Positions 10,386 through 30,892 of a DNA stretch of 42,973 bases are shown piece after piece. The position numbers were made by a program, and so were the translations under genes. Under the pieces are notes generated by a model. It was not told where the DNA came from. It did no database searches and worked only from the letters and a program-made list of their open reading frames with translations. Numbering within the stretch: position 1 is the first letter of the stretch; each line of letters starts with the position of its first letter. Origin of the DNA: an uncultured Gemmatimonadota bacterium. Lineage in GTDB: Bacteria > SM23-81 > DAOVCL01. Where the stretch lies: NCBI GenBank assembly GCA_964626665.1, contig CAZVGK010000029.1, forward strand, positions 1 to 42,973, written 5' to 3'.

Positions 10386-11387
10386 TTATCTGTGGAACCC
10401 CGAATAGCAAAGAGAAAGGTTTCGGCCTGAATTCTTGGCCTTGTAGAGGGAAAGATCGGCCTTGTAGATGAGCTCCTCCACCGTCTTGGCCTCATCGGGG
10501 AGGGTCACCCCGCCAACGCTGGCTGTCAGTTTCCCCTTGGGCTGAATCTTCTCCCCAGGAAAGGGATATTCCTCTATGTTGCTTCTTACTTTTTCCATTA
10601 GCTCCTGACAGATCTTTCTATTTGCCTCAGGCATAATGAAGACAAACTCCTCGCCTCCATAGCGGAAGGGAATATCCACCTCGCGTAGGGAACTCCTCAT
10701 TATGGCGGACACCTGTCTTAAGACAAGATCTCCCTTCTTCTCCCCTAAACTCTGGTTATAGAGATCGAAGCTATCCAGATCAAGGATGGCCAGGGAGAGA
10801 TATCTGCCAAACCTCTTGGCCCGTAGGGTCTCTTCCTTGAGCCTCAGGGAAAACGAGCGGTAGTTGTAGAGGCCGGTAAGCTCATCGATATGGGAGATTT
10901 CCTCCAGTTTTTTCCCCTGGTCAATGTTGGAGATGGCCACTGAGATCATATTGGAGAGGATAGTAAGCATCTCCAGGTCTTTGGGGGTGAATTCTCCCTG
11001 TATTTTCCCTCCCACGGCCAATATACCTGAAAGTTTCCCTTTGGGCCCAATAGGGACAAGCACCCTGTAGCTTTTCCCCTGCAGGGGCAGAGGTCCACCC
11101 TGTTGCAGGAGATCGCCAACCAGGGAATCTCCTTCCCTGATGATCCACTCTCTTCCCTCGCGGGCTCCCTTTACATACTTGGCCTGAAACCCACCATTCT
11201 CCTGGGGAAGGAGGACTGCTGCGCTCCTACATCCCAACTGACCTAATATGGTCAGAAGGAAGGAGTTCAGAAGTTCTTCCAAATCCTTGAGAAGCTTAAT
11301 GCTGCCACTTAAAAGATAGAGGTCGTAGAGGCGGTAGGCCTCCCTTTTTAGTTCCCTATCCTTTGGCTTGACCCGTGAGCTTCTCAT
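10386..11387 (-). CDS. GAF-GGDEF diguanylate cyclase
   Basis: DELTGLYNYR, RxxD I-site (REVD), RYGGEEF, ADLSLYKAKNSGRN; N-terminal GAF-like region. Confidence 0.9.
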   Translation of the reverse strand: MRSSRVKPKDRELKREAYRLYDLYLLSGSIKLLKDLEELLNSFLLTILGQLGCRSAAVLLPQENGGFQAKYVKGAREGREWIIREGDSLVGDLLQQGGPLPLQGKSYRVLVPIGPKGKLSGILAVGGKIQGEFTPKDLEMLTILSNMISVAISNIDQGKKLEEISHIDELTGLYNYRSFSLRLKEETLRAKRFGRYLSLAILDLDSFDLYNQSLGEKKGDLVLRQVSAIMRSSLREVDIPFRYGGEEFVFIMPEANRKICQELMEKVRSNIEEYPFPGEKIQPKGKLTASVGGVTLPDEAKTVEELIYKADLSLYKAKNSGRNLSLCYSGFHR

Positions 11388-12061
11388 TAGCCTTTGTATC
11401 TCTGGATAAACCTTTCCTTGCGGCTAAACCTTAAGCGGCTTTTTTTGCTCTTCAACCCCTTTTCCTTCAAAATCCTTCTGGTCCCCCACCATCCCAAGGA
11501 TCTACTCTCATCCAACTCCTTGACCTCCTTTCTGATGCTGGATATGCTCAGAAGGGGGTTTTCCCTGACTACCTGGAGAATGATTTCTTCATCGCTCATC
11601 TCCTTTATTTCCTTAATCTTGGCCTCTTCCTTGACCGATGCCTCTGCTCTCTTTTTTTCAAATTCCTCCTTGATCTCCTCTGCCTCCTCCACTTTGAAGC
11701 TTGGCTCCACCCCAAAGTCCTTTTTCGCTTCCTCTAAACCGTCATAAGCCTTGAGAATGGTGTCAAACTCCAAGAGCTCGAAGACCTCATAAACCTCAGG
11801 TATCATCCTTACCAGCTTGATGTCCCCCTTGTTTAATCTTATCTCCCTTATGTTGGAGATGAAGATCCCCCAACCAGCGCTGCTGATATACTCCACTCCG
11901 GCCAGATCGACTATTATCTGGTGCCTCTTCTGTTCTACCAGGGAATTCATTACCTTCTCCAACTCGGTGGATGTGGTGGTGTCTATCACGCCATCTACCC
12001 TAACTATGGAGACTTCGTTGTTAGGTCCCTCCGCATTTAAAGAAATCCTGATATCTTCCAT
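11387..12061 (-). CDS. STAS anti-sigma-factor antagonist with C-terminal helical (HTH-like) extension
   Basis: IIVDLAGVEYISSAGWG phospho-Ser motif; charged linker; C-terminal ILQVVRENP...RLRF domain; GAGG RBS. Confidence 0.88.
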   Translation of the reverse strand: MEDIRISLNAEGPNNEVSIVRVDGVIDTTTSTELEKVMNSLVEQKRHQIIVDLAGVEYISSAGWGIFISNIREIRLNKGDIKLVRMIPEVYEVFELLEFDTILKAYDGLEEAKKDFGVEPSFKVEEAEEIKEEFEKKRAEASVKEEAKIKEIKEMSDEEIILQVVRENPLLSISSIRKEVKELDESRSLGWWGTRRILKEKGLKSKKSRLRFSRKERFIQRYKG

Positions 12062-12127
12062 CCTTACCTCCGCGGTTTAGGTTTGCTCGTAAAAATTTTT
12101 AAGGGGCAACTTATAATTGTTAAACTG

Positions 12128-12418
12128 TTATGTCTGTTTTTTCACTGGAAAATCAGCAACATAGAGGTTGTTGATGGCAAAGCTGAGTATCTCCGCTTTG
12201 CTATACTCCCCGTAGCCATTATTTCTCAAGCCCTCCTGAAGTTTCCTGATCCTCTCCACATCCTTCCTTTTCAAAAGGACCGTAACCTTCATCCATTCCC
12301 CCTTTCCGGGCTCAGGGTCGAAATCTGACTCCTTTCCCAAGGAGAGAAGCCTTCCCAAACTCTCCTTCTCCCCTTCCTGGGAGAAGATGTCAGTCCCCAC
12401 CCTTTTCTTCCCAGCCAT
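12128..12418 (-). CDS. Small ParA partner protein, probable C-terminal ribbon-helix-helix
   Basis: Overlaps parA 3' end; basic N-terminal peptide; KVTVLL...SKAEILSFAI RHH-like pattern. Confidence 0.6.
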   Translation of the reverse strand: MAGKKRVGTDIFSQEGEKESLGRLLSLGKESDFDPEPGKGEWMKVTVLLKRKDVERIRKLQEGLRNNGYGEYSKAEILSFAINNLYVADFPVKKQT

Positions 12419-13148
12419 AGTTAAACACCTCCTCGGTTAATAGGTAATAGTCCTGAGAGCCATAGGAATAAGGGGCGTATTCGAAAATGACCTTGTGGAA
12501 TCCAGGGGCCTCCTTGAGGGATGTATTTGATCTTATTACCGTATTAAACACCTTTTTCTTAAAGTGTCGCCTTATAGTTTGTAAGACCTCATAGGAGACT
12601 TTGGTCCTGGAATCAAAAAAGGTGGCTAAGATGCCCAATATCCGCAATTGATGGCTTAACCTCTCGTTCACTTCCTCTACAGTTTCTATTGTCTTTTTTA
12701 ACCCAACCATCCCTAAGAAGTCCATACTCACCGGGATGATGGCATAGTCTGCATAGGTGAGGGCGTTTATGCTGATCAGGCTCGTAGAGGGCGGGCAGTC
12801 GCAAATAACCCAGTCTGAGCCCTTCAGGGTGGAGAGCACCTGTCTCAGCCTGAGCTCTCCCTCCTTCCTTTGGGCGAGCAAGGCCTCGGTTTCGGCCAAT
12901 CTTCTCCCCCCGGAGTCGATGAAAAAGAGGTTTTTCCTTACCTGGAGAATGTCAACCTTTCCCCTGAGGAGGAGATCGGGCAGGGTTTGGCTTCCATAGG
13001 TATCAAAGATGGTGGCCAGGTTTCTCTGTGGATCACAATCTATAAGCAGAACCCTCTGGCCAAACATCGCCAATCCATAACTTAAATTGATAGCAGTGGT
13101 GGTCTTTCCTGTTCCTCCCTTAGAGGTGACGACGGCGATTTTCCTCAT
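12390..13148 (-). CDS. parA: ParA/Soj-family ATPase
   Basis: Deviant Walker A KGGTGKTT, LIDCDPQ, DCPPS, C-terminal IRSNTSLKEAP. Confidence 0.92.
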   Translation of the reverse strand: MRKIAVVTSKGGTGKTTTAINLSYGLAMFGQRVLLIDCDPQRNLATIFDTYGSQTLPDLLLRGKVDILQVRKNLFFIDSGGRRLAETEALLAQRKEGELRLRQVLSTLKGSDWVICDCPPSTSLISINALTYADYAIIPVSMDFLGMVGLKKTIETVEEVNERLSHQLRILGILATFFDSRTKVSYEVLQTIRRHFKKKVFNTVIRSNTSLKEAPGFHKVIFEYAPYSYGSQDYYLLTEEVFNYGWEEKGGD

Positions 13149-15925: not shown

Positions 15926-17746
15926 TTATTTCTCCATCCCCTTGAGCCTCACCCTGGCCTCCTCTATATTCCTTAAGGTGTTCTCATTGTTGGGGTAGTA
16001 CTCCAAAACCTTCTCCCAGAGCTTAATGGCCTCCCGATAGTTTCCCTTCTGATACTGGGAAAGTCCATCCAGGTAGAGATTCCATATGGTCGGGTCTTTC
16101 CTCAGTTCGGCGAGGGAAGTTGGCTTGGCCGATTTGCTTATTGCCTTTTGCAGGTAATCTTTGGCCATTTGGTTCCCGGGATCGATCTTCAGGATGGAGT
16201 TGAACTCTAAGATGGCTCCCTTATACTCTCCAGCTTCAAATTTCTCCACCCCCTTGCGGGTATATTCTGAGACCTGCACCCTCTGAGAGGCCAGCTGCAA
16301 GCCTTTCTCTGCCTCTGGGTCACCGGGGAGATAATCCAAAAGGCGGTTATATTCCTCAATTGCCCCCACAAAGTTCTCTAAGGTCATATCCTCCTTAGCC
16401 CTTCTTCGAATGGTCCCTATTTCATCCTGGAGGAGTTTTCTGAGGCTCCCCAGTTGTCTTTTCGCCTCCTCGTTTTGGGGATCGAGTTTTAGTATCCTCT
16501 CAAACTCCTCAATGGCCAGGTTATACTTGCTTCTCTTTCTATACTCTAAACCGGATTTTATATGGGCTTCAATCAAGGTCCTGCTCTTCTCGGCGGCGAT
16601 GTTGGCCACCAACCTCTTATTTATCTCCTGGGTGATGGATTCAATCTTGGCCTGGGCATCTGAGTTCTGGGCATCCCAGGCCAGGACCCTCTGATACTCG
16701 GCCAAGGCTCCGGAGAGATCCCCTTTGCGGTATAACTCTCCACCCTTCTCCGAGTGGAACTTCATCCTCTCCCTCCTGCGGGCTTCGGCCATTCTCCTTT
16801 CCTCCTCCTGTCTTTTCTTCTCCTCGGCGATTCTCCTCTGCTGTAAGGTGGAGCCAAACCTGGTGGTCAGGGAGAGCCTGTGGGTGAGGCCCAGGTCCTG
16901 GTATGACCTGAGGGCATAGTCGAGTTGAAAGCGACGATAGCGCATCCCCCCTCCAAAGGCAATGCGCCCTTCGTCCCAACCTGATCTGAGGCAAAAACCA
17001 TCCCGCGGCTCGAATTGGAAGCCCAGATGGAACTTGGGGGAACAGCCCTTAAGCTTGTCTAAATCGATGGCCAGGGTGCCCCATCTCCTTGCTCCTTTAA
17101 CCAGGGCATAGCTCAGGCCGAGCTTCAGGTTAGGGGGGGTTATATCCGTGCTCTCCTTGAGCTTAAGGGCAGCCCCACCGATGTCCTGCAGATTGAGCCC
17201 TATATTTAAACCTTCCCTGAGGGGACGGAGGAATCCCAGATCGAAGCTAAAGCCTGAGGCCGAGTAGGGGCCTAGCCTATGGGTGAGGAACTTAAAGCTC
17301 AATCCCCCCTTGAAGGAGAGAGGCAGGGAGGTTCCCCAGGAGAGGAGATATTCGGCCTGAACATTCTCCCAATAGTCTAAGATCTGAGGGCTATCCGTGG
17401 TATGGGGGATGTCTCCGGTGGAGATCCAGAGCCCTCCCAGGCCGAAGTTTCCCCATTTGAGGGTGGGATATGCATATCCGATGAAGTTATAGCTTGTCCC
17501 CGCAAAGAGGAAGCAACGCAGGGCAGTGACCTCCTGCTGTCCTAAGTTCTGCAGGCCAGCAGGGTTCCAGTAGATACTGCTGGCATCATCACTTATGGCC
17601 ACAAAGGCTCTACCCATGCCCATTGCCCTGGCCCCGGCCCCAAAGTGGAATATGCTCTCCACTCCCCCTTCTTCGTCGGCAAAGGAAAGAGGGGAAAGCC
17701 CAATCCAGAGGACAAACCAATATAAGATTGTTCTTTTTAAGCTCAT
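15926..17746 (-). CDS. PorV/PorQ-like outer-membrane barrel fused to C-terminal TPR domain
   Basis: Signal peptide from ATG 17746; GARAMGMGRAFVAISDDASSIYWNPAGL; barrel ends DYA...LGLTHRLSL; coiled coil then TPRs. Confidence 0.82.
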   Translation of the reverse strand: MSLKRTILYWFVLWIGLSPLSFADEEGGVESIFHFGAGARAMGMGRAFVAISDDASSIYWNPAGLQNLGQQEVTALRCFLFAGTSYNFIGYAYPTLKWGNFGLGGLWISTGDIPHTTDSPQILDYWENVQAEYLLSWGTSLPLSFKGGLSFKFLTHRLGPYSASGFSFDLGFLRPLREGLNIGLNLQDIGGAALKLKESTDITPPNLKLGLSYALVKGARRWGTLAIDLDKLKGCSPKFHLGFQFEPRDGFCLRSGWDEGRIAFGGGMRYRRFQLDYALRSYQDLGLTHRLSLTTRFGSTLQQRRIAEEKKRQEEERRMAEARRRERMKFHSEKGGELYRKGDLSGALAEYQRVLAWDAQNSDAQAKIESITQEINKRLVANIAAEKSRTLIEAHIKSGLEYRKRSKYNLAIEEFERILKLDPQNEEAKRQLGSLRKLLQDEIGTIRRRAKEDMTLENFVGAIEEYNRLLDYLPGDPEAEKGLQLASQRVQVSEYTRKGVEKFEAGEYKGAILEFNSILKIDPGNQMAKDYLQKAISKSAKPTSLAELRKDPTIWNLYLDGLSQYQKGNYREAIKLWEKVLEYYPNNENTLRNIEEARVRLKGMEK

Positions 17747-17764
17747 CTGTTTGAATAAAGCTTT

Positions 17765-17995
17765 GAACACGAATTTCACGAATGGACGAATCGGCGAGCC
17801 GTCAGGTGCCCTCACCTGACGGTGATGGTGGCAGAATCGGGGTTCTGCCACCTCCTTAGTACATCTTCTCCCTTCGTCATTCGGGATTACCATTTTCTTA
17901 TTTTCCAATTTCTATTTTCCGTCTTCCCGATCTACGATCTACGAAACACGAGTCTCCTATTCGTGTAGATTCGTCCATTCGTGGCATTCGTGTTC
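17765..17995. mobile_element. Composite MITE-like element with 27-bp inverted ends enclosing a GAG-hairpin doublet
   Basis: gaacacgaatttcacgaatggacgaat (17765-17791) and attcgtccattcgtggcattcgtgttc (17969-17995), 25/27; hairpins B 17796-17822 and A 17827-17854. Confidence 0.7.
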
Positions 17996-18001
17996 CGAAG
18001 C

Positions 18002-21000
18002 TTATTTGACCACAGCTATCTTCGTTCTGGCCTTCTGACCTGCGGCCTCCACCTGGCAGATATATACCCCATTTCTCACCATAATTCCCCGGCCATTTTT
18101 TCCATTCCATTCTATGGAATTCACCTTCCCCCCTTTTCCCCCTTCCCCCCCGGCTTGGCAACTGAGCTTCCTCACCAGTTCGCCGGTGAGGGTGTATATC
18201 CTCAAGGCTACATCCGAATTCTTGGGGAGATAGTAAACTATATGAGAGACCTCCCGGTGGGGATCAAAGGGGTTGGGGTAGCTGACCAGGGAACTCAGGT
18301 CTGCCTTCAGGGCCACTATCTTCTTTGACCGCAAAGGGAAATCCTCTGCAGAACCGACATAGACCTGACCAATGGGGACCCCCTCAACCACATCTGAGGC
18401 CTTGATGCCGGTTGAATCCACTATCACCCTGAAGCTCTTTCCCTCAATAGCAGGGGAGATAATTAGGCTGAGGATAAGGGTGTCTCTGTAACCAGGGTCT
18501 AAAAGGAATGGTGAGGACAGAGCTATCCTTACCCCATCATCCATTGGTTCACCCTGGCCGATTACCTGCAAACCATCTTTAAGAGAGACCTCTTTTAGGA
18601 AATTTGGCGAGAGGGGTTTACCCTTCCCATCATCTAATCTGAACCTCAGCTCCCTTATTCCCACCTGATGGCCTCCTGGCAGGTTCCTGTTGGTCACCAC
18701 CAAGCCAAGCACCTCTGCCTCCTCTCCTATACCTATGGAGATGGGAGCTAGATCCTGGGGTGTCACCAGAAGGGATGGGGCCTCCACCCTGATTTCATCC
18801 GCCAGGAAGGAAATCAACCAGGGTGACTCATTGTTCTGAAGTCCAAAAAGCTTCACCTGAGGTCGGTATGTTTTAGGAGAGATAACCTGAGGAACGGAGT
18901 CAGCCTTAAAGGCGATCTCCGTCTCCTCCTCTCCCCATAAATAGGAGGTGGTAGGGTTAAGCCCTGAAATGAACCTTTCTCCGTGAGAATCTCCAAACTG
19001 GATGAAGGAAGAGTCTGGATTGAGTTGAATAAATGAACTTCCATTATTCTTTAACCTAAGGGAGAAAGTTACTTTCTCACCAGGGCTGACCACCCTGGGC
19101 TTTACCGAACCCACAAGATAGGAAACCTTCGCCTCAGTCCTCACAATCACCGTGTCTGTTAACCAGATCGTATCCCCAAATTCCATTCCATTCTCCCTAC
19201 CTAAGAGGGTAAGCGTGAGGTCTGTATATTGAGCTGGATCAAGCCCCACCAACTTCTGCTCGAAGGAGAGAAGGACCGATTTTCCACCAGGGATGTAGGT
19301 GGTCGATTTCAGGAAGGAGGAGTAACCACCAATCTGGAACATCGTTCTTGCTGAATCCAGGCTAACCCCGGCCTCACCGCTGTTCGCTATCTTCGCCAGG
19401 AAGCCAACAATCTCCCTCTGGTATACCTGACGAGGGGATAAGACCCCTCCATAGGAAAGCCGGGCCCTTCTCTGCACAGTTATCTGGGGCAGATTAGGGG
19501 TTGAGGTGGAATCAAAGTAGAGGGAATCGGGGCAACCGTTTTCCTTGCCAACCAGGGATATTATGGGTTTATACTTCCCCGACCTGAGGGATTCATCTGC
19601 TATCCCCTCGAAGGTAAGGAGGGTCTGGGCTTTCCCTGCTTTGGTGCAGCTTAGCTTAATTGCCCCTCTTCTACCGGGATTGGGGGTGGAGGAACCTTCC
19701 CCGGGAATGATCGGGGGATCGGTGGTGAGATGGGCCACCAGGCTGTGCCCCTCCTGGTCAGATATGACAAATTTTGACCTGGTCTTCTCCAATATGAGGG
19801 CTGACTCTCCGGAATTCTCCACCCATATCTTAAATATTCCTGGCTTTCCGCTGGAGACCACCGTATCCTGGCCTACCAGAGAGATGGAAGCCGGGGTCTG
19901 CACCAAGAGGGCCCCAGGAAGGGGGATCTCCTGGGAGAAGTTGGCAGTATTTTGGCTGCCTATAAGCTTGAGGTCCAGATCAATAACCCCAATTGTGTCG
20001 ATAAATTGAGGGAGAAAGGTCAAAATGGTCTCCCTGCTCCCTGAGATGATTGTTCCGCCGGAGCTATCCAGAGAAGTTGAAAACCCTGTGAAGGAGAGGG
20101 TTGTAACCTGAGGGTCAAGTTCTATACCTGCCTGGCCCTCATTCCTCAGCATCAGGGAGAAACTCCTTTCCTGCCCTCTGGAGACGGTATCGGGATCTAA
20201 GTAAATGAAGACCGGATCTGCCGGGGTCTGTACTAAGAGGCTCTCCGGGCTCTGGACCGTAGAATCCGATAAACTCATCCCGCTGTTTATATCCCTCCCC
20301 CAGGCCTGGCTATAAATCATCACCCAACCAGGAGGGGCATTTTCGTCTATTTTCAGTCCAAACTGGTAGTGTTTGCAACTATCCCCCACGATCGTATCGG
20401 GAAGATGGCTGATGAGGCTGTCCCGGATGCCAGATCCTTCCGGCATAACCAGTCTCAGGCTGTCTAAAATAATCTCCGCCCCCCCTCCATTTCTTATCTC
20501 CACCGTGAGGTAAATGTTCTCCTGCCCCTGTGATACCACTGAGGGCTGAGCCAAGAAGCTCTCAATAGTTAATGATGCTTCTCCAATTGTCTCCACCTCA
20601 ATGCTATCACCGGGTTGAGAGGAATAGGAGAACTGATCGGTGTTTTCGTCGAAGGGGAGGCTGTCGATCTCCACAGTTATGATTGATGTGGCTCTGGGGT
20701 AATCGGGTGTGCTAACTTTCCAGATAACTAGCTGATTGATGGTAAATGGTTTAATTAGTGAATCCGTGGCGCATCCCGTTTGGCCAAAATCTATGGAAAG
20801 CCTACCGGAACCGCGAACCCCGGCCTCTCCTGTATTTTCCACTAAGGCCTCTACCGTGAACTCCTGCCCAGTGGAGACTATTCCATCCTGAGCCTCGGGT
20901 GGACTGGTTATGGAGGCGCTAAGTTTAAGGTCTGCCTTGGAGATAGTGAGCACCTCTAAACTATCCTTCCCTTCACTGACAAACGCTGAGTCACCTGAGT

Positions 21001-24000
21001 TGATATCCAAAGGCACTGTTGACAGTTTCACCAGAAGGTAGGAGAGAGAGACGGGGGTTTCCGGGGCGGTGATTTCCCAGCTTACCGAGCAGGTGGGAGA
21101 ATCATCGAGGTTAAAAATCCTGGTGGAATCTGCCGTCCAACAGCCAGAGCCGCCCAAATCCAAGCTAAGCTCTCCGGAGCCGGTTACTTCTGCCCTTCCT
21201 CTATTGGTGACCCGGGCGGTGAGGATAAACTGCTGCTCAGTAGATAAGGTATCGTCAACTGCTCCAGGGGGAGCGGTGATCTCGGCTGAGATCGATAGAT
21301 CAGCCCTATCTACTGTCTCGATCTTGATGGTATCTGACAGAATGCTCACCGAAGCGGTGGAGTCCGTGTTCTCATCATTGGGAATGGAACTCATCCTTAT
21401 TATAAGGTCATTGGCAGGGACAGAACTCTCAGGGGCGGAAAGCATCCAGCTAACCGTATCCCCAGGGAGGAAGCTCCAGGCGGTGTCCGATAGGAGAGTG
21501 CAACCTGTGTTCCCTATCTCAAGAGTCAGCTTGCCCGTGCTGTCTACTCCAGCCTGGCCTCTGTTGATTACCAATGCGCCCACTTTAAAATTCTGATTTG
21601 TGGAGACCACCCCATCGGTTGCCCCCTCTGGTGAGATCACAAATGAGTCAACCGCCAGATCTGCCTTTTCTATGGTTCTAACGATAACTGTATCTGAACT
21701 TCCCACGGGTATTCTGCTGTTCTGGTCAATTCCTCGGGCACCAATGAGGATGAGGGTATCTAAGAGAACTGGTATAGGTGGTGCCCTTAACTTCCAGGTA
21801 ACTGTGTCATTTACAGGTTTTTGAGCAGAGTCGCTGAGTAGAATATAACCTGCAGGGAACCTCTCCAAAAAGGCAAGTGTGTCTATGATGTTAGGGGTAG
21901 CTGAAATCGTTGCTTTAACCCAAAACTCCTGATCGGTGGATAATATCCCATCTTCAGCTCCAGAAGGACTGCTGATCTGAGCAGCCACGGCCACGCTTCC
22001 CGCATAGACGGTGGTAATGGGAATGCTGGCCACCCCTCTTTCTACCCAGGCAGCGCTATTTGTGTTCTCATCCTGGGGCAGGGAGATCAGACTCACCCTA
22101 ATGGTATCCAAGGCCTGACTTGTGTCCGGGGATTTTACCTTGAATTCAATAGTATCGCCAACCTGGAATGGGGAAGGGTCTGAACCTGAGAAGAGGGTAT
22201 ATCCTGAGGGGAGAGTGAGGTCTAACAATCCTTGACCATAGGTTCCGGCCTCACCCAAGTTTTCCACCCAGGACTTCAGGGTGAATATCTGGTTGGTGGA
22301 AACGGTGTCCTGCGGTGCACCTGGAAGTCGGATGATATTCAGATTGGCGGAAAACTCAGCCCTCTTCACCGTAACTACCCAGAGGCTGTCCTCCTCCTTG
22401 CTGACAAATGATGGTTGATGGGTATTGGCATCCAAGGGAGGGGTGATTATCTGGGCCGATAGGAGTTGGATTGGCTGAGACGAATCAGGAGCTGTTAGCT
22501 CCCAGAGAAGGGGTGAGCCAACGGCGAAGTTGACGCTGGTATCATCAACCGAGTAGCCAGAGGGTAAGTTCAGGATGATTGTCCCCGAGTCCTCAACCCC
22601 TGCCTCCCCTCCATTGGTAACTAAGGTTTTCAGAATGAATAACTGCTGAGTGGAGAGAGTATCATCTTTTGCCCCGTTGGGAGAGTCAATCCAGAGAGTT
22701 AAGCTCAAATCAGCTTTGGTCTGCACCTGGAAGGGATGGCCACCCCAGATCTCCTTCTCTATCTTCGCCTGGCTGGTCAAATCCTCTCCCCAGAAGAATC
22801 CCCTGATAGTGGCTGTCCCCAGGGTGGTTCCGGTGGAGTCTATAAGAAAGGCTAAACTGTCCGTAGTCCCCCCGGGGATGATGGTGCTCCCACTTCCCTC
22901 GAATGTGGAAGGTTTCTGGATGATATACTCTCCGGTTACCTCAACCCCGATATAAAACCTCACTCTGCTACTATCCAGCCGCACTGAGGCATCACCAGAG
23001 TTGGAGATTAACATAAAGACCTGCCAGTCAACTCCCTGATCCCGGTTCACCTGGGGTTGGGAGGGCTTTATCGAGAGGATGTGGATGCCCGCAGGAGCCT
23101 CCACCACCCAACTATCCACCAGATCAGCGCCGAGATCATTTACCTGGTAACCGGAATTGGCATCCCTGCCATAGATTCTCCCATCCAAAGTGGTATTTCC
23201 TGTAGGGGCATCTCCTCCCACATCCACCAGAAAACTAAAAACCGTATCCTGAGTTCCTCCGGGGATGCTGTCTGGACCGCTATTCAGTTGAACCTGATAA
23301 TGTGAGCTTACATCCGTAGCCCCCTGCCAGAAGGTCAAAAGGGTACTATCCACGGTAGCGGTTGCCTGACCGGTATTGTCCACTATCATACCAACAGCTA
23401 TCCCCGACTGCCCCTGATTCACGATATCGGGAGCTGTCTCTATTCTGTCAATAGTTAGGTAGGCAGGGGTCTGTACCACCCAACTGTGGGGTTGAGTGGG
23501 CGAATTATCTGAAACCGAGTTGCCGGAGTTGGCATCTGTCCCTGTTACAGTAGCTTTAATGGTGACGGAGCCGGAGTGGGCATTGGATTTTACCTGCACC
23601 TGATAGGAGAAGCTACGGGAGCTCGAACCGGGAATGGAATCGGGGTTACTGCCAGAGGTAACAATATAGTCTGAAGTTCTCTCTGTGGAACCCTGCCAGA
23701 ATGTTAACCCAGCGCTGCTGATGTGGACTATTGTCTCTCCCGTATTGCTTACCGTCATGGTAACCGGAATCCCTGACTGTCCCTTGCTCACCGAGGTGTG
23801 GGTACAGGAGATGGACCCAATGCTCAGGTGAGCAGGGGTCTGGATGGTAATCCAGTTAGAGGAAGAGGAGTTTGAACTCACTGGATTACCGGAATTGGCA
23901 TCCGTGCCCGTGGCATGGCCAGAGAACCTGACGGTTCCGTGGTCACCGGAGGAGGAGGAATATACCCAGACGAAGTCCGCCGATTCACTGCTGTCAAGAT

Positions 24001-27000
24001 TGGTGCTGACCGGAGATGGTCCACTCTGCAGGTGGGCTCCTCCAGTTCCGGAGAGGGTTAAAGCAGATGGAGTCACATCTTCAACAGTGGCCCCACCATT
24101 GTTGGTAACCGTCATCGTGACCGTTATATTCTGTCCCTCGCTGAGCTGATTTGGGTTAGCAGCAATTGTGGAGACCAGATCCGAGGACGATTGCACTGTC
24201 CAGCCATCAGTGGTCTCTGCCGAGTCGTCTGAGGTTATAGCATTGGAGTTGACATCCTGACCGGACACGGATCCATCAATAGTGATGTATTCAGGAGAGG
24301 CGGTGAGGCTGACATCAACCGTAAAAGTGAAGGTTCTTTGAGATAGGCCGGGTATGGAGCTGGGGTTGCCTCCAAAAGGGGTAACCGTATAGTCGCCGTT
24401 TCTGTCTACCGCGCCGGCCCTAAAATTTAGGTTAGAGGAGGTTATTAAAGCCCTTGCTTGGCCCAGATTATCCACGCTCATCGTCACCGTTATCCCTGTT
24501 TGCCCCTGGCTAACCACAGTGGGTGAGGTAGAGATAAGGTTTATGCTCAGGTTTGCTGAGGTTTGCACTACCCAGGTATCAGTTATGGCAGCGCCTTCAT
24601 CGGAAACGGTGTAACCTGAGTTCACATCCCGGCCAGTGGCCTTTCCATCAATACCCACTACTCCAGGGGAGGATGTGCTTTTTACATTCACATTGTAGGA
24701 AAACCTTCCCTTTTCTCCTCCATTTATTGTGCTTGGTCCCGAGTTGCGGGTTATTACATATTGTTCGTTGCCACTGGAGAAGACCGGCCCAGTCTGGCTC
24801 ACATCCCCCTCTATCTGAGCATCTGCCTCCCCCAGGTTCAAGACTGTCATCCACACCGTCAACCCAGTCTGACCTTGAGAGACGGTATCGGTGAGGGTCC
24901 AAACCGAATCCACAGCAAGCTGAGCTGGCCTCTGCACAACCCACCAGTCCGTTTGCTGAGGGCTGTTATCGCCGACCTGCACAGAATTGGATGTTCCATT
25001 TACAAACCCGCTTATGGTGACCGTGTCATCCACGGTTGCCGAACCAGATGTTTGCACCCAGAAGTAGAGGCTTATCGTAGCTCCTGAGGCTATGCTATCC
25101 GGGTTGACTGGGCTTGGGGTAACCGTATATTCGGAGGTCAAATCTCCGCTTAACTTGCCGGTGAAGCTAAGGCCCGCTGTATCTAAATAAGCTGCCCCCG
25201 CTCCCTCATTTTTCATGCTCATACTTACCGTATCGGTCTCCCCCTGGGAGATCAGGCTGCGTCTGGTGAAGATGGTGAGCAGGTCCAGTTTCTCCATCCT
25301 CACTGTAGTTGTCCCATAGGCATTCCCATTTACCGAGTGGGCAGCCACCAGGGCCTCCCCTCCGGTGGTGGATTCAGACTGCAGGATGAAGGTTATCGTT
25401 CCGTTGGGGGCTGTGGCCACCGTAGCTACTTGTTCCCCCGAAATTGACCCCAAGGTGGTGCTCACTGTAATCAGGGTCCCTGTGCTTACCCTATTCCCAT
25501 AGACATCCCCTATCTCGCTGGAACTTATAGTGGAACTACTATCCCCATCCGCAGGGATGACCTGGGGAGTGGGGGTGAGGGTTATGCTTCCTGAAGGAAC
25601 GCCGGGGTTGACGGTGATCACCTCAGTTGAATCCGGGGTGATCCCTGTGCTATCTGCCTTTATGGTTCCGCTGGTGGGGGCTGTGGTGGGTTTGAACTTG
25701 GTGCTTGTCCCCGTGGAGGGAGAGGGAGAGTCCAGGTTCCCTGTCCTTGTCCAGGTAGCATTCACCTGGCGCACCCAGTTGCCATCCCCATCATAACCCA
25801 CTGCATAGAGCACCAGACTATCCCCAGTGGAGATGGTCTGAGCGGGTATCTGGTTGCCCCCACCTCCTGGGGCATCCTCCACCTGAATAGAGGCCAAGGT
25901 CCCCAGATTTACTGTTATCGTTCCGGTGGCATCGGTGTGACCGGAGCCATCGTCTGCGGTTATCGTGCCCGTGCCCACTTTGGTGGCATCAAAGGTTGTG
26001 CTCGTGCCTGAGCCAGGGGAGACATCGCCTATCCCACCTGTCACCCCCCAGGTTACACTTACATCGGAGACATAGTTGCCCGCTGCATCCCGGCCTATAG
26101 CATAGCAGGTCAGTGTCTGATCGGTGGTCAAGGTGTCCTTGTTTATGGGATTGCCTGTACCATTAGCCGCATCCTCTATCTGGATGTAGCTTAAAGACCC
26201 AATGCTCACCGTTATCGTCCCGGTGGAGTCGATATGCCCTGATCCATCATTGGCAAATATCTGCCCACTGGTGCCTCCAGTGCTGGGAGAGAATATCGTG
26301 CTTGTGGCCGGCCCTGAAGGGGTGTTATCCAGGGTGGCGGTGACTCCCCAGGTACAGGTGATATCGGCTATATAATTGCTGTCCGCATCATAACCGGCAG
26401 CCCACAACGGATATGTTTCCTCAGTGGTCATCGTATGGGTGGTGGCCTCAGAACCTGTGCCGTTGACCCCCTTCCTCACTATTATGTAGCTTAGGGCACC
26501 ATCATTGACGGTGATCAAACCTGTGGTGTCGTCCTCTGCCGTGGTATGATGGGCAACTATCCTGCCACTGGTAGGTGAGGTAGAGGGATCAAAGGTAAAA
26601 GTTGTTCCTGTCCCTGGCTGAGAGTCCAGACCATCTATGGTTGACCAACTCACCGACTCATCTGCTCGGTAATTGTTGTCCGCATCATAGCCAGCAGCGT
26701 AGAGGGTAAATGTCTCATCCGTGGTCATAGAATGGGTGGTTACCTCTGAACCTCCCCCACTGGCTGTATCCCTGATCAAGATGTGATCTAAGGTCCCCAG
26801 ATTTACTGTTATCGTTCCGGTGGCATCGGTGTGACCGGAGCCATCGTCTGCGGTTATCGTGCCCGTGCCCACTTTGGTGGCATCAAAGGTTGTGCTCGTG
26901 CCTGAGCCAGGGGAGACATCGCCTATCCCACCTGTCACCCCCCAGGTTACACTTACATCGGAGACATAGTTGCCCGCTGCATCCCGGCCTATAGCATAGC

Positions 27001-27658
27001 AGGTCAGTGTCTGATCGGTGGTCAAGGTGTCCTTGTTTATGGGATTGCCTGTACCATTAGCCGCATCCTCTATAACTATATGGTCCAGACCTCCTGCCAC
27101 TACATCCACATCCCAGGCTCCAGAGGATTTCTCTGAGCATTTTGTATAAGGGTCTGCTATGTTTGTATCATTGTAAAAAGAGGTGAAATGATTGGAAGAG
27201 CTGGTGGTGGTGGGGATACCTTCGGAGAAGGTGACCATCAGGGAATCCATAACGCCGCTGGCTGGGGCGAGGATAACCAGGGAGTCGCTTCCAGATGCGC
27301 TGAAATAATACCAGTAGCAGTGACCTGAATCTGGATGAGTGGAGATGATTACCTTAGAGCTGTCTTCCTGGATCCATTGTGATACCCCAGCGATGAGGAT
27401 CTCCTCAACGGTTATTTCTTCGTCAGTAAAGGGGTTATGGATGACGAATTTGTCCGCACTGGCTGTGGCTGAAGTGTCAACTATGGTGAAGGTATAAGTA
27501 AATTCCTGGGCGGAACCGGCCACAACACTGTGAGGGGAGATTTCCGCTTTCACCGTATCGGCCTGGTTATCTCCTGCAGCTTGTATCCCAGAGAATGGAA
27601 AGAGAATTATGGAACTGAAAAGGATGGCACAGATATTTTTAATAGCTTTTCCTTTCAT
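18002..27658 (-). CDS. Giant (3218 aa) repetitive Ig-like surface protein with T9SS-type/FlgD-like C-terminal domain
   Basis: Signal peptide; many ~100-125 aa S/T/G/D-rich repeats; C-terminus YPNPF...IYTLTGELVRKL...WNGKN...NGVYI...KIAVVK. Confidence 0.88.
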   Translation of the reverse strand: MKGKAIKNICAILFSSIILFPFSGIQAAGDNQADTVKAEISPHSVVAGSAQEFTYTFTIVDTSATASADKFVIHNPFTDEEITVEEILIAGVSQWIQEDSSKVIISTHPDSGHCYWYYFSASGSDSLVILAPASGVMDSLMVTFSEGIPTTTSSSNHFTSFYNDTNIADPYTKCSEKSSGAWDVDVVAGGLDHIVIEDAANGTGNPINKDTLTTDQTLTCYAIGRDAAGNYVSDVSVTWGVTGGIGDVSPGSGTSTTFDATKVGTGTITADDGSGHTDATGTITVNLGTLDHILIRDTASGGGSEVTTHSMTTDETFTLYAAGYDADNNYRADESVSWSTIDGLDSQPGTGTTFTFDPSTSPTSGRIVAHHTTAEDDTTGLITVNDGALSYIIVRKGVNGTGSEATTHTMTTEETYPLWAAGYDADSNYIADITCTWGVTATLDNTPSGPATSTIFSPSTGGTSGQIFANDGSGHIDSTGTITVSIGSLSYIQIEDAANGTGNPINKDTLTTDQTLTCYAIGRDAAGNYVSDVSVTWGVTGGIGDVSPGSGTSTTFDATKVGTGTITADDGSGHTDATGTITVNLGTLASIQVEDAPGGGGNQIPAQTISTGDSLVLYAVGYDGDGNWVRQVNATWTRTGNLDSPSPSTGTSTKFKPTTAPTSGTIKADSTGITPDSTEVITVNPGVPSGSITLTPTPQVIPADGDSSSTISSSEIGDVYGNRVSTGTLITVSTTLGSISGEQVATVATAPNGTITFILQSESTTGGEALVAAHSVNGNAYGTTTVRMEKLDLLTIFTRRSLISQGETDTVSMSMKNEGAGAAYLDTAGLSFTGKLSGDLTSEYTVTPSPVNPDSIASGATISLYFWVQTSGSATVDDTVTISGFVNGTSNSVQVGDNSPQQTDWWVVQRPAQLAVDSVWTLTDTVSQGQTGLTVWMTVLNLGEADAQIEGDVSQTGPVFSSGNEQYVITRNSGPSTINGGEKGRFSYNVNVKSTSSPGVVGIDGKATGRDVNSGYTVSDEGAAITDTWVVQTSANLSINLISTSPTVVSQGQTGITVTMSVDNLGQARALITSSNLNFRAGAVDRNGDYTVTPFGGNPSSIPGLSQRTFTFTVDVSLTASPEYITIDGSVSGQDVNSNAITSDDSAETTDGWTVQSSSDLVSTIAANPNQLSEGQNITVTMTVTNNGGATVEDVTPSALTLSGTGGAHLQSGPSPVSTNLDSSESADFVWVYSSSSGDHGTVRFSGHATGTDANSGNPVSSNSSSSNWITIQTPAHLSIGSISCTHTSVSKGQSGIPVTMTVSNTGETIVHISSAGLTFWQGSTERTSDYIVTSGSNPDSIPGSSSRSFSYQVQVKSNAHSGSVTIKATVTGTDANSGNSVSDNSPTQPHSWVVQTPAYLTIDRIETAPDIVNQGQSGIAVGMIVDNTGQATATVDSTLLTFWQGATDVSSHYQVQLNSGPDSIPGGTQDTVFSFLVDVGGDAPTGNTTLDGRIYGRDANSGYQVNDLGADLVDSWVVEAPAGIHILSIKPSQPQVNRDQGVDWQVFMLISNSGDASVRLDSSRVRFYIGVEVTGEYIIQKPSTFEGSGSTIIPGGTTDSLAFLIDSTGTTLGTATIRGFFWGEDLTSQAKIEKEIWGGHPFQVQTKADLSLTLWIDSPNGAKDDTLSTQQLFILKTLVTNGGEAGVEDSGTIILNLPSGYSVDDTSVNFAVGSPLLWELTAPDSSQPIQLLSAQIITPPLDANTHQPSFVSKEEDSLWVVTVKRAEFSANLNIIRLPGAPQDTVSTNQIFTLKSWVENLGEAGTYGQGLLDLTLPSGYTLFSGSDPSPFQVGDTIEFKVKSPDTSQALDTIRVSLISLPQDENTNSAAWVERGVASIPITTVYAGSVAVAAQISSPSGAEDGILSTDQEFWVKATISATPNIIDTLAFLERFPAGYILLSDSAQKPVNDTVTWKLRAPPIPVLLDTLILIGARGIDQNSRIPVGSSDTVIVRTIEKADLAVDSFVISPEGATDGVVSTNQNFKVGALVINRGQAGVDSTGKLTLEIGNTGCTLLSDTAWSFLPGDTVSWMLSAPESSVPANDLIIRMSSIPNDENTDSTASVSILSDTIKIETVDRADLSISAEITAPPGAVDDTLSTEQQFILTARVTNRGRAEVTGSGELSLDLGGSGCWTADSTRIFNLDDSPTCSVSWEITAPETPVSLSYLLVKLSTVPLDINSGDSAFVSEGKDSLEVLTISKADLKLSASITSPPEAQDGIVSTGQEFTVEALVENTGEAGVRGSGRLSIDFGQTGCATDSLIKPFTINQLVIWKVSTPDYPRATSIITVEIDSLPFDENTDQFSYSSQPGDSIEVETIGEASLTIESFLAQPSVVSQGQENIYLTVEIRNGGGAEIILDSLRLVMPEGSGIRDSLISHLPDTIVGDSCKHYQFGLKIDENAPPGWVMIYSQAWGRDINSGMSLSDSTVQSPESLLVQTPADPVFIYLDPDTVSRGQERSFSLMLRNEGQAGIELDPQVTTLSFTGFSTSLDSSGGTIISGSRETILTFLPQFIDTIGVIDLDLKLIGSQNTANFSQEIPLPGALLVQTPASISLVGQDTVVSSGKPGIFKIWVENSGESALILEKTRSKFVISDQEGHSLVAHLTTDPPIIPGEGSSTPNPGRRGAIKLSCTKAGKAQTLLTFEGIADESLRSGKYKPIISLVGKENGCPDSLYFDSTSTPNLPQITVQRRARLSYGGVLSPRQVYQREIVGFLAKIANSGEAGVSLDSARTMFQIGGYSSFLKSTTYIPGGKSVLLSFEQKLVGLDPAQYTDLTLTLLGRENGMEFGDTIWLTDTVIVRTEAKVSYLVGSVKPRVVSPGEKVTFSLRLKNNGSSFIQLNPDSSFIQFGDSHGERFISGLNPTTSYLWGEEETEIAFKADSVPQVISPKTYRPQVKLFGLQNNESPWLISFLADEIRVEAPSLLVTPQDLAPISIGIGEEAEVLGLVVTNRNLPGGHQVGIRELRFRLDDGKGKPLSPNFLKEVSLKDGLQVIGQGEPMDDGVRIALSSPFLLDPGYRDTLILSLIISPAIEGKSFRVIVDSTGIKASDVVEGVPIGQVYVGSAEDFPLRSKKIVALKADLSSLVSYPNPFDPHREVSHIVYYLPKNSDVALRIYTLTGELVRKLSCQAGGEGGKGGKVNSIEWNGKNGRGIMVRNGVYICQVEAAGQKARTKIAVVK
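25896..26179. repeat. Intragenic 284-bp direct repeat, copy 1
   Basis: Identical by visual comparison to 26790-27073 (offset 894 nt, in frame). Confidence 0.9.
26790..27073. repeat. Intragenic 284-bp direct repeat, copy 2
   Basis: Identical by visual comparison to 25896-26179. Confidence 0.9.
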
Positions 27659-27664
27659 CGATCC

Positions 27665-28192
27665 TTAATCTGAAGCCTTTCTGAAGACCTCATCGGTGAA
27701 TTTGACGGAAGTTCCTTTCTTCCCTTCCTCATAGGTCCGCAAGCTAAACTTAAAGGGTCCTTGGCCGGAAAGTCCCTGAACAGAGAAAGATAGTTTGGCT
27801 TCTCCTTGAAGAGGCAACTTCTGGGAGGTAATCTTTACGGCAAGCACACCCTGATTGGAGTTATAACTCCAGGTGGCATAACCCTCTTCTTGCGGTCGCT
27901 TCTCTGACCTTTTCAACCAGAAATGCTCTTTATCCAAAGCGAATCCTACCAGTATCAATTTCTCACTGGAAGGGGAACCAGAAATCTCAAAGGTATTCTG
28001 GGAACTTCCATCAAAGGGAAAGGTGAAGTCAAAAGTTTGAACCTTCCCATTTGATCTTATGATGTGTGGTGAAATGCCTACTTTGGAGGGTTTTGCAAAT
28101 CCCGAGGAATAAAAAGTAAAAAGGAGAGAAAGGAGCAAAACCATCAGGACAAATGCTGAAGGACATATTTTTCGTTGCCCATTTGTAAACAT
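27665..28192 (-). CDS. Secreted hypothetical protein (175 aa), beta-rich
   Basis: Signal-peptide-like N-terminus; 6 nt from giant gene; resembles the giant protein's first domain (ISPH...FTF). Confidence 0.7.
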   Translation of the reverse strand: MFTNGQRKICPSAFVLMVLLLSLLFTFYSSGFAKPSKVGISPHIIRSNGKVQTFDFTFPFDGSSQNTFEISGSPSSEKLILVGFALDKEHFWLKRSEKRPQEEGYATWSYNSNQGVLAVKITSQKLPLQGEAKLSFSVQGLSGQGPFKFSLRTYEEGKKGTSVKFTDEVFRKASD

Positions 28193-28239
28193 ATATCTTC
28201 CTTTTGAGTTGAAGTTAATTGCTATATGAACTGGCTTTT

Positions 28240-28268
28240 AAATTAACATATCTCTAAGATGTTGTCAA
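28240..28268 (-). promoter_or_regulatory. Putative sigma70-type promoter
   Basis: TTGACA-17 nt-TAATTT with TGn extension on minus strand. Confidence 0.5.
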
Positions 28269-28337
28269 GGCAAACTTTTTCCTTCTCTTATTCTCAGATT
28301 GGAAATTTTTAATTTGCCCGTGGACTATTGTAATTAA

Positions 28338-28353
28338 AGCAAAATTTGTGCCA
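28338..28353 (-). promoter_or_regulatory. Sigma54 -24/-12 promoter
   Basis: TGGCACAAATTTTGCT (GG-N10-GC) on minus strand upstream of the giant-protein operon. Confidence 0.72.
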
Positions 28354-28965: not shown

Positions 28966-29703
28966 TTACTTCTTCTTCTTCCCCCAGCGGCGAGTCCGGC
29001 GGAGAAAGCCAAGACCTAAGAGGCCGGAGCCCATTAGGATTAGGGTGCTCGGCTCAGGAACTGGAGCTACGCCATACAGATCCCCCGCATCATTCCCGCA
29101 TTCCATAGTCCAGTGAATATGATATGGGCCAAGCTCATTATTAAGCTGAGATCTGGCGATTTTGGCCTCAATAGAATACCGTCCATCGAAATCACCGTAG
29201 TGGAATCCGTCTATGCCATTGGAATTATCACTTGAAAGGACCCTCCAGGGATTTGATACTCCTCCCCAATAGATAGAAGTGTTCTCCCAGCCAATATTGC
29301 TAGAGTGCAAGTCCCCATTATTGTCAATGTCTATTCCATAATCATAATTCCCATCATTACCGAAATCAATGGCGATGTCACCAGGGTCATATCCCTGTAA
29401 ACCACTAATAGGGAAGCCTGTCACGATGGCAAAATAGGCGTAGGAATTATCGAGGCCGTAATAAACCGCTTCCACATCGAAGTTTTGGCCACCGTAACCA
29501 GGGCCAACTTGGTCATTTGCAGGGTTGCCATTCCAGTCCTCAACATAATAGTTAACATAGTCAAGCCCTTTAGCATTGGCATCTACATCCCAGTTGCCAT
29601 AGCTAACTCCCCAACTGGTTAGAAATGATGTCGCCTGGAGAGATATTGCTCCTAACGAGATCAACCCTATGGTTATCAACAAAGTTAAGATTGTCCTTTT
29701 CAT
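28966..29703 (-). CDS. PEP-CTERM sorting-domain protein
   Basis: Signal peptide; HWTMECGND; VPEPSTLILMGSGLLGLGFLRR plus basic tail; GGAGG RBS. Confidence 0.93.
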   Translation of the reverse strand: MKRTILTLLITIGLISLGAISLQATSFLTSWGVSYGNWDVDANAKGLDYVNYYVEDWNGNPANDQVGPGYGGQNFDVEAVYYGLDNSYAYFAIVTGFPISGLQGYDPGDIAIDFGNDGNYDYGIDIDNNGDLHSSNIGWENTSIYWGGVSNPWRVLSSDNSNGIDGFHYGDFDGRYSIEAKIARSQLNNELGPYHIHWTMECGNDAGDLYGVAPVPEPSTLILMGSGLLGLGFLRRTRRWGKKKK

Positions 29704-29754
29704 TGTCTTGCCTCCTTAACTTTTTAATTAAATGAGTATCTATCCCTTTACATG

Positions 29755-29770
29755 TGCAAAACCTATGCCA
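29755..29770 (-). promoter_or_regulatory. Sigma54 -24/-12 promoter
   Basis: TGGCATAGGTTTTGCA on minus strand. Confidence 0.78.
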
Positions 29771-29862
29771 AAAGAACAATAAAACCAAATTAAGGTAACC
29801 CATTTAAATTACAGGCAGTTACTAATAAGAAATTTTTCGTTCTGCTGTAGAGAAAATGAAAC

Positions 29863-29945
29863 TGTCAAAGAAAGCTACATTAAATCTAATTTTCAACTTT
29901 AAGTTTATGATTTTATTGAAGTTAAGAGTGTAACGAGCTATAACA
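29863..29945. promoter_or_regulatory. Two TGT-N11-ACA enhancer boxes (putative PrsR sites)
   Basis: tgtcaaagaaagctaca (29863-29879) and tgtaacgagctataaca (29929-29945). Confidence 0.65.
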
Positions 29946-29985
29946 AACTATACGAACATTTCTTAACTACTTTGTAATTTACCTA

Positions 29986-30015
29986 ACAAAAAAGGGGCTG
30001 ATAGCCCCTTTTTGT
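29986..30015. terminator. Rho-independent (bidirectional-type) terminator of gene 30038-30709
   Basis: aaaaaaggggct-gat-agcccctttttg. Confidence 0.8.
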
Positions 30016-30037
30016 CCTTACAAACTATGTTTTCCCT

Positions 30038-30709: not shown

Positions 30710-30769
30710 TAGGTTTCCCTTTCTTCATTAAAGATTAAAATTCCTATACTATTTTTAATTATTTATATA

Positions 30770-30785
30770 CGCAAAAATCGTGCCA
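30770..30785 (-). promoter_or_regulatory. Sigma54 -24/-12 promoter
   Basis: TGGCACGATTTTTGCG on minus strand, near consensus. Confidence 0.85.
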
Positions 30786-30892
30786 ATTTGAAAATTTGGA
30801 TATCTCACTCCCCTATCTATTTGAAGTATAAGGGATAACAAGGGAAAATTTTTTCAGCCTGTTCTTTTCACAAAGCCTAAAATCTTTAAAAA

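Follow-up and report, generated by a model that had tools for sequence, protein, structure and literature searches.

A conserved gene block suggests a line from a predicted type IX-secreted giant surface protein to exopolysaccharide and cyclic di-GMP control in an uncultured Gemmatimonadota bacterium

The window analysed here comprises the 42,973 nucleotides of contig CAZVGK010000029.1 (contig C29) in assembly GCA_964626665.1, the genome of an uncultured Gemmatimonadota bacterium (GTDB lineage Bacteria; SM23-81; DAOVCL01), which is 3.17 Mb in size, 99.65% complete and belongs to a small phylum. Its minus strand carries eight genes, encoding a small exported protein, a giant surface protein, a barrel protein with tetratricopeptide repeats (TPR), a membrane-bound kinase/phosphatase (KP), a ParA-type ATPase with a small probable partner, a STAS protein and a diguanylate cyclase (Table 1). 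The conserved part of this block suggests a route, so far undescribed, that runs from the cell surface to the control of slime and cyclic di-GMP (c-di-GMP). The original prediction, read from the sequence, had proposed an envelope-to-DNA signalling operon here, and a check of open reading frames (ORFs) together with Pfam and NCBIfam scans confirmed the eight ORFs as co-oriented, at the starts and with the domains it had given. In gene order the junctions measure 6, 255, 0, -4, -29, 66 and -1 bp, so that five of the seven abut or overlap (<=6 bp) and "mostly abutting or overlapping" is an apt description; also as claimed, the scans matched no sigma-factor family among the proteins of the block. 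An upstream TTG at 17908 is possible as the start of the barrel ORF; the start at 17746 is preferred because the protein of a genus-mate, G002, begins at the same Met with a signal peptide. This genus-mate has kept all eight genes, together with PEP-CTERM, PrsR and PrsK genes upstream, the apparent split of its giant gene being an assembly gap of N and no true split, and in genome G001 a short contig carries the six downstream genes. The other family of the phylum, represented by four genomes, gave PP2C-domain matches only and no TPR match.

Table 1. Features of the gene block and its flanks (window positions), in order of transcription.
Feature	Position	Strand	Remarks
Sigma-54 -24/-12 consensus promoter	28338..28353	-	146 bp before first gene
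175-aa exported protein	27665..28192	-	hydrophobic N-terminus
3218-aa giant surface protein	18002..27658	-	TIGR04183 C-terminal domain, signal peptide
26-bp REP-like palindrome in 255-bp gap	17827..17852	-	genome-wide element, outside the system
606-aa barrel-TPR	15926..17746	-	NF033709 + TPRs
KP, 926 aa	13145..15925	-	HATPase_c_2 + sCache_3_2 + HAMP + SpoIIE + HTH_28/32
ParA-type ATPase, 252 aa	12390..13148	-	AAA_31
96-aa probable ribbon-helix-helix ParA partner, basic N-terminal tail	12128..12418	-	homologues + atlas lead
STAS protein, 224 aa	11387..12061	-	STAS domain + helical domain
Diguanylate cyclase, 333 aa	10386..11387	-	GAF + GGDEF

The giant protein consists of tandem Ser/Thr/Gly-rich repeats of 100-125 aa in several classes, in which the Pfam scan found no catalytic domain. 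Hydrophobic residues 9-27 form a Sec signal peptide, and the C-terminal domain (CTD) scores 26.4 against TIGR04183 (cut-off 23), which places the protein among the type A cargo of type IX secretion systems (T9SS); the CTD is of a type A-like subtype and ends in KIAVVK. The host genome encodes a SprA translocon (TIGR04189) and a PorU sortase (NF033707), both over cut-off, along with 129 CTD matches and 11 strong PorV-like barrels. The GldM profile had no match in this genome and was equally silent in control genomes; GldK, GldL and GldN were not searched for. The 606-aa protein had been named PorV. Membership of the PorV/PorQ family holds (NF033709, 108.4 against 90), with a PorV/FadL-type fold, while the PorV equivalog NF033710 falls short (26.4 against 250), and the barrel adjoining PorU is a separate gene (C5:84676-86940). 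Its structural model (pLDDT 93.5) shows a strand-rich barrel at about residues 28-297, followed by some 300 helical residues. The top Foldseek rows for the barrel are the T9SS translocon entries 8gl6_F and 6h3i_F, chain F of which we take to be PorV, and FadL, and there is a weak UPF0164 match below cut-off (E 0.00037). Judging from barrel topology, and as was assigned for Treponema FadL-like proteins (PMC8407342), the helical TPR tail is probably periplasmic.

A profile of the CTD subtype, built from module members, gave its two best scores in the host genome (129 and 95 bits, the next being 69) to the giant protein and to a 2161-aa protein on contig C4, and each of these two genes has a barrel gene directly behind it. 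This cargo-then-barrel layout of the genome itself supports the "dedicated barrel" proposed earlier, and on this genomic pattern it is very probable that the giant protein is held by its own barrel. The C4 cluster (C4:45660-59684, plus strand) comprises the 2161-aa CTD giant and its own 418-aa barrel, which has an Ig-like domain at its C-terminus, along with a TPR protein of 996 aa and ExbB/ExbD/ExbD-like genes; a TonB-like gene follows (59627-60853) and a sigma-54 consensus lies before the cluster at 45517, the ExbB/ExbD/TonB-like names being read from the sequences. A TonB-type motor thus adjoins T9SS cargo in a genome without a GldM profile match. As for the 175-aa protein, it has no Pfam or NCBIfam match, resembles the first domain of the giant protein weakly (22% over 138 aa, E 0.002, against its N-terminus) and finds five matches, one of them strong, among 1.84 billion representatives; its gene is a genus-level accessory.

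KP is built, from the N-terminus, of an RsbW-type Ser kinase, a transmembrane (TM) segment (159-177), a single periplasmic Cache domain, a second TM segment (320-338), HAMP, PP2C, an IS481-type two-part helix-turn-helix (HTH) and a C-terminal tail motif. Since the two TM segments flank the Cache domain, the kinase, the PP2C and the HTH are cytoplasmic. Kinase and PP2C motifs are invariant in alignment A1, and in a set of 80 loci described below the homologues have retained the N-box in 77, DVSGKG in 78 and TDG in all 80, two stricter PP2C patterns being found in 60 and 59. The GHKL Ser kinase motifs, the metal-binding aspartates of the PP2C and the phospho-Ser motif of the STAS protein, which together mark a partner switch, are all present. 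The best NCBIfam match of the HAMP-PP2C part is SiaA, below cut-off (92.8 < 700), and the Pfam scan gave no Response_reg match in KP, the middle of which is TM-Cache-TM-HAMP, so the kinase-REC-phosphatase architecture of SypE is not present. From the known families, and by analogy with SypE/SypA, KP would be expected both to phosphorylate and to dephosphorylate the STAS protein.

The motif SSAGW occurs in 81/81 STAS genes behind KP, and its Ser61 is the predicted phospho-acceptor, a position that we presume from the SpoIIAA/RsbV motif. The C-terminal helical domain of the STAS protein is homologous to the second half of the KP HTH (pairwise E 0.001; E < 1e-4 in many loci), is encoded in some loci by a small gene of its own and is putatively of a DNA-binding type. 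The cyclase carries GGEEF at 244 and an RxxD I-site, as an active enzyme does, and 27 of its 28 homologues in the loci keep both; it has no predicted TM segment and is thus soluble, and it scores below the SiaD cut-off (136 < 290). STAS-type proteins can bind cyclases, and by this analogy the STAS protein might act on the cyclase of the window, a suggestion that we make tentatively. The ATPase is of the ParA/MinD family with KGGTGKTT intact, scoring below the equivalogs ParA_partition (83.4 < 180) and BcsQ (87.5 < 157.85). The 96-aa protein has no Pfam or NCBIfam match; a profile of five foreign rows ranks it as the top match in the host genome (E 8e-5), and an atlas lead points to CopG/RHH_1 (score 0.92, the family being on 15% of members). 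Together with homologues behind ParA in Latescibacterota-type loci, this makes it a probable ribbon-helix-helix (RHH) partner of ParA.

A classical anti-sigma circuit acting in trans, in which the KP kinase would hold a distant sigma factor until the STAS protein frees it, has to be weighed against a sigma-free output. The host genome encodes 11 sigma-70-type factors over cut-off, among which the FliA-like one (C1:160183-160911) lies among flagellar-type genes as read from the sequences, and partner switches acting on RpoS exist in Pseudomonas according to PMC6482189. However, the block lacks the cognate sigma gene that marks canonical sigma-B and sigma-F operons, only one of the 80 loci has a sigma-factor gene at all (9.5 kb off), the kinase is tethered to the membrane and fused to its phosphatase as in the sigma-free SypE, and the STAS protein carries an extra domain of its own. 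We consider the anti-sigma circuit highly improbable.

KP-like matches were found in 76 of 81 genomes (at E <= 1e-75) of the phylum of G025, labelled Zixibacteria-type here from the names on matches at 50% identity, mostly as single copies with a few partial matches or members of a second subfamily, and elsewhere in 41/41 KSB1-type, 21/41 Latescibacterota-type and 9/31 Eisenbacteria-type genomes. From the match lists 80 loci were picked by hand, representing 40/76, 20/41, 13/21 and 7/9 of the positive genomes of these four other phyla, respectively. A TPR gene stands directly before KP in 78 of the 79 loci with upstream DNA, a barrel is present in 72, a CTD gene in 71 and a STAS gene in 69/80; a TPR gene also precedes the Cache sensor in 40/40 further loci. 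The spacing is tight, with a median of 18 bp from TPR to KP and of -4 bp from CTD gene to barrel (71 loci, 68 of them at <=50 bp), this last junction being usually an overlap elsewhere as against the 255-bp gap in the window. The co-occurrence and synteny in other genomes that the original prediction called for are therefore borne out for the core, in that CTD protein, barrel-TPR, KP and STAS protein show synteny with close spacing across four other phyla. The full eight-gene composition is not conserved in this way: ParA (next to KP in 23/80 loci), RHH and the GGDEF cyclase (28/80, all 28 Zixibacteria-type) vary, and the 175-aa gene is a genus-level feature. The front end of the module is shared by six or more phyla, most of them uncultured, in two of which it is near-core (76/81 and 41/41 genomes searched).

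Behind the front end the output varies between versions. In the first the cyclase is followed by Wza/Wzz-type exopolysaccharide (EPS) genes, in the second there are three fused STAS, ParA, RHH and a 372-aa TPR protein, the third has a fused C-terminal TPR region, and in the fourth, which belongs to the second subfamily where the kinase is moved or split off, there is a histidine kinase. One further lineage with a cyclase is the phylum of G114, where a TM-GAF-GGDEF output recurs (31% identical to the cyclase of the window over 339 columns). The high counts for TPR and STAS, as against those for ParA and GGDEF, indicate a conserved core with exchangeable outputs. At loci L201 and L210 a small CTD protein, a short barrel, a 250-aa gene and a GGDEF protein stand in a row, possibly another cargo-barrel-cyclase module. 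Where ParA is present its gene abuts KP (23/23), and the KP tail motif (W/F)xxYxxxL, which the KP of the window also has, occurs in 23/23 loci with ParA and 0/57 without, a pattern written after the tails were seen and to which only two lineages contribute ParA loci. An RHH gene accompanies ParA in 5/12 Latescibacterota-type ParA loci of the set, and in L025, and in none of the Zixibacteria-type ones. This co-occurrence makes it rather likely that ParA with its RHH partner docks on the KP tail. Nearly every Zixibacteria-type and KSB1-type genome searched has KP, in single copy, which makes it probably a main switch of the sessile lifestyle in these abundant sediment bacteria, for which no genetics is at hand.

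The central question is whether the TPR arm is tied to the Cache sensor. With 31 candidates scored in each of 80 genomes, the TPR profile (E <= 1e-50) matched in 29/29 KP-positive and 0/51 KP-negative genomes, 11 of the 29 being absent from the profile. In the reverse test all nine weaker TPR matches proved to be the second subfamily, with CTD, barrel-TPR, Cache-PP2C and STAS, and among 53 other PP2C loci used as control one had such a barrel, the same locus having a KP-type Cache as well. In six loci barrel and adhesin have been lost while an exported TPR-only protein is kept before KP, and five of these six also lack a STAS gene nearby. In the tree the TPR-only proteins nest inside the barrel-TPR clade in two places, although the starred branches do not force two losses, and a separate all-TPR lineage stands before Cache-PP2C in five more loci. 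The metagenome scan seeded with the barrel returned mostly barrel-only genes; among the 11 of 80 metagenome loci that were annotated, six had barrel and TPR: kinase-Cache-PP2C follows in four, a fifth breaks off at the contig end in a kinase fragment, and the sixth has no DNA downstream. The TPR kept beside the sensor after the loss of barrel and adhesin is the best sign of a TPR-Cache link, and on this gene history a contact between the two is slightly favoured.

Several observations weigh against a direct link. Of 40 TPR or barrel-TPR places picked by hand in the phylum of G114, 22 lack a Cache sensor within 1.5 kb (2 at contig ends, 1 duplicate), so the barrel-TPR works there without a neighbouring sensor. 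These loci (L283-L322) show an expansion of barrel-TPR genes, with up to 12 profile matches per genome and some double, and several stand behind a CTD gene and before MoxR-type AAA genes. The sensor nearly always has a TPR neighbour and the barrel-TPR does not always have a sensor, which fits an anchoring device with a later-added sensor. Conservation of the last repeat was rejected as a mark of sensor binding, the values for last versus earlier repeats being 0.37 vs 0.27 in sensor-less and 0.40 vs 0.31 in sensor-paired proteins; a loss of the last repeat from sensor-less barrel-TPRs was ruled out too, as they end in a TPR. Mean-field covariation over 167 TPR/Cache pairs gave a mean top-5 z of 4.39, vs 4.12-4.95 in 12 within-clade shuffles, in an underpowered comparison, and a run over 87 pairs, which had no control, gave scattered top pairs only. 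In fold the Cache comes nearest to sensors of small ligands, CitA for instance, resembling CitA/WalK with Z 15.2 and root-mean-square deviation (rmsd) 2.7 over 122 aligned residues, and locus L105 has KP, ParA, STAS and cyclase with no barrel-TPR in its local neighbourhood, no search in trans having been made. In addition, none of the 40 loci from three of the phyla has the cyclase, the loci counted above are related by descent and so not independent, many of the control loci come from phyla that possibly lack a T9SS, and the case for direct contact between the parts draws on gene layout and history.

Much of this would be expected if the block were an attachment operon whose parts are co-regulated without a physical link, the barrel-TPR only anchoring the giant protein, its TPR binding a general periplasmic partner and the Cache sensing a small molecule, with the genes kept together by their shared role in surface attachment. 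The 22 sensor-less places, the unspecific conservation of the last repeat, the absent covariation signal and the CitA-like fold all agree with it, as do the barrel-TPR proteins of Treponema pallidum, which have a proposed role in transport (PMC8407342). It fails to explain, however, why the TPR alone is kept beside KP once barrel, adhesin and STAS are gone, and why a second TPR lineage stands beside the same sensor, and we regard it as unlikely.

The signal could also run outwards. LapD, LapG and LapA exemplify such inside-out control of an adhesin, and here a cytoplasmic state (of KP, STAS or c-di-GMP) would set the conformation of the Cache; by gripping or letting go of the TPR tail, the Cache would decide whether the adhesin is retained or released. 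The output domain of a LapD orthologue is among the fold matches of the Cache (4u64_A, Z 11.8, rmsd 2.8, 109 aligned), and in most loci adhesin gene and barrel gene are coupled in translation. That match lies well below the top fold rows, however, the TPR-only forms have no cargo to hold, and KP keeps both catalytic centres while its STAS substrate is conserved, a combination that argues for an output in the cytoplasm; control in this direction appears quite improbable.

A connection to EPS is seen both in other phyla and in the host genome. Wza-like genes occur in 28/40 Zixibacteria-type loci. The only other STAS protein of the host genome with a KP-HTH-like domain lies on contig C4 between Wza/Wzz-like genes and a 372-aa TPR gene, behind a sigma-54 consensus, the names of these EPS genes resting on homology to Pfam-labelled neighbours of other loci. 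As this second STAS-HTH protein sits inside an EPS export cluster, the switch seems tied to EPS in the organism of the window too. In this cluster (C4:9278-17060) the STAS protein (387 aa) has two helical HTH-like domains, and there is also a divergent GAF protein of 420 aa that is probably a histidine kinase and is 32% identical to the cyclase over its N-terminal 174 aa.

Our best reading, to which we give an even chance, is that a dedicated carrier resembling SprB/SprF signals via a sigma-free switch resembling SypE/SiaABC to outputs in EPS and c-di-GMP. The giant protein would be exported by the SprA translocon, and, judging from the genomic pattern, its own PorV-family barrel would keep it at the surface in the way SprF keeps SprB. 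The periplasmic TPR tail would touch the Cache of KP and report that the carrier is loaded, assembled or pulled, a step suggested by gene history. Via HAMP this would shift the balance of phosphatase versus kinase activity of KP on Ser61 of the STAS protein, the catalytic residues being conserved and the activity being the one expected from known partner switches. The STAS protein itself, and no sigma factor, would be the output, presumably acting on the cyclase and on EPS export in the way HsbA and SiaC act on cyclases and SypA on the Syp polysaccharide, while ParA and its RHH partner, docked on the KP tail, may position the complex. The signal would run from outside to inside. Sensing of adhesin display or engagement is understood for few bacterial systems, and if the TPR-Cache contact is true a T9SS carrier acts as a signalling receptor. 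The block may even represent a new class of surface signalling, with the T9SS carrier as receptor, a TPR arm that switches a membrane Ser kinase/phosphatase upon loading or engagement of a giant adhesin, and varied outputs, although we rate this possibility somewhat short of even. TPR and Cache are two small soluble domains (~280 and ~140 aa) that are confidently folded in silico.

The consensus sigma-54 promoter before the first gene is conserved in the genus-mate, at 28353 of the window, and rpoN is over cut-off in the host genome. The consensus has 24 matches in the genome vs 11.8 expected, so the site rests on its position and on its conservation in G002. The promoter is a genus-level feature; general sigma-54 control of the module was rejected, with 0/33 loci of other phyla having a site upstream of the CTD gene vs 3/435 control genes, the gene starts in these loci being longest-ORF guesses. 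Scans for sigma-70 promoters and terminators gave results near chance (23 vs 16.6 and 22 vs 21.8, respectively). Just upstream of the 175-aa gene a perfect TTGACA is followed by an AACAT-N9-ATGTT palindrome (28245-28268, minus strand), kept in G002, which is possibly a second promoter with operator. The REP-like (repetitive extragenic palindromic) element between giant gene and barrel gene has 139 merged sites in the genome, none deep inside ORFs of >=200 aa, with further copies in the window at 28833, 28614, 31598, 3880 and 821 and a similar copy in the same gap of G002. Upstream of the block (28966-35254 and 41400-42317, both minus strand) lie genes for two PEP-CTERM proteins, a sugar transferase, and both PrsR and PrsK over cut-off, with sigma-54 consensus sites also at 29770 and 42376, and PrsR may activate the operon in this genus. 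A degenerate GGDEF-like protein of 178 aa (30987-31523, minus strand; Pfam below cut-off) is present here and in G002. On the other side (969-7854, plus strand) genes for a TPR protein, a small DnaJ-domain protein, a GrpE-like protein, Hsp70 and further TPR proteins form an atypical chaperone cluster.

An outer-membrane or surface protein linked by periplasmic contact to an inner-membrane regulator is familiar from FecA-FecR-FecI, YfiB-YfiR-YfiN and LapA-LapG-LapD; to our knowledge neither a T9SS carrier nor a TPR arm occurs in any of these, nor does a Ser kinase/phosphatase switch. In line with the claim that no characterised system has this composition, the combined block was not found described in the open literature, supplements lying outside the search. 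Cargo with its own shuttle is the layout of the type B CTD substrates SprB-SprF and PorP-PorE-PG1035 (PMC12618676, PMC9143113), and PorE has a TPR domain (PMC12773672). As with SprB-SprF, the large CTD gene here stands directly before its own barrel gene (71/79 loci, median gap -4 bp), and as with PorP-PorE-PG1035 the barrel would be tied to a periplasmic partner, with the TPR fused to the barrel instead of being a domain of PorE. Unlike the type B pair, the CTD scores as type A (TIGR04183) and the barrel of the PorV/PorQ family, TIGR04131 and PorP/SprF having no match in the NCBIfam scan, and the next gene encodes a signalling enzyme. The T9SS is treated as belonging to Bacteroidota in PMC12618676 and PMC9143113, and PMC11285876 allows other phyla of the Fibrobacterota-Chlorobiota-Bacteroidota (FCB) group; the pairing of cognate cargo and barrel with type A-like CTDs is seen here outside Bacteroidota.

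The FadL-like TP0548, TP0859 and TP0865 of T. pallidum (UPF0164) have a 14-stranded barrel with an NPA-type motif and a C-terminal periplasmic TPR-bearing bundle (PMC8407342), which makes them alike in combining barrel and bundle; they differ in their short tail and proposed uptake of hydrophobic nutrients, and the description consulted there mentions no CTD cargo or sensor. In Vibrio fischeri SypE, with an N-terminal Ser kinase and a C-terminal phosphatase, controls the STAS protein SypA in a polysaccharide-linked system (PMC10120452, PMC8256260). KP likewise unites kinase and phosphatase in one protein, with the STAS protein itself as the proposed output, but in place of the central REC of SypE it has TM-Cache-TM-HAMP along with HTH and tail, and its STAS protein has the extra helical domain. 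In Pseudomonas aeruginosa the partner switches SiaABCD and HsbR/HsbA/HsbD act on a diguanylate cyclase through protein contact and thereby control aggregation or biofilm (10.1101/674879, PMC8457831, PMC5085249); the parts of these descriptions consulted name no outer-membrane carrier or adhesin. In contrast to SiaABCD, the kinase is fused rather than separate, and KP and cyclase score below the SiaA (92.8 < 700) and SiaD (136 < 290) cut-offs. New here are the synteny counted with controls, the loci that have lost the barrel, the contrary evidence that sensor-less barrel-TPRs provide and a second STAS protein lying in an EPS cluster. Every part of the system belongs to a known family, and as a whole it works like PorV proper, the type B/SprF pairs, SypE and SiaABCD without belonging to any of them.

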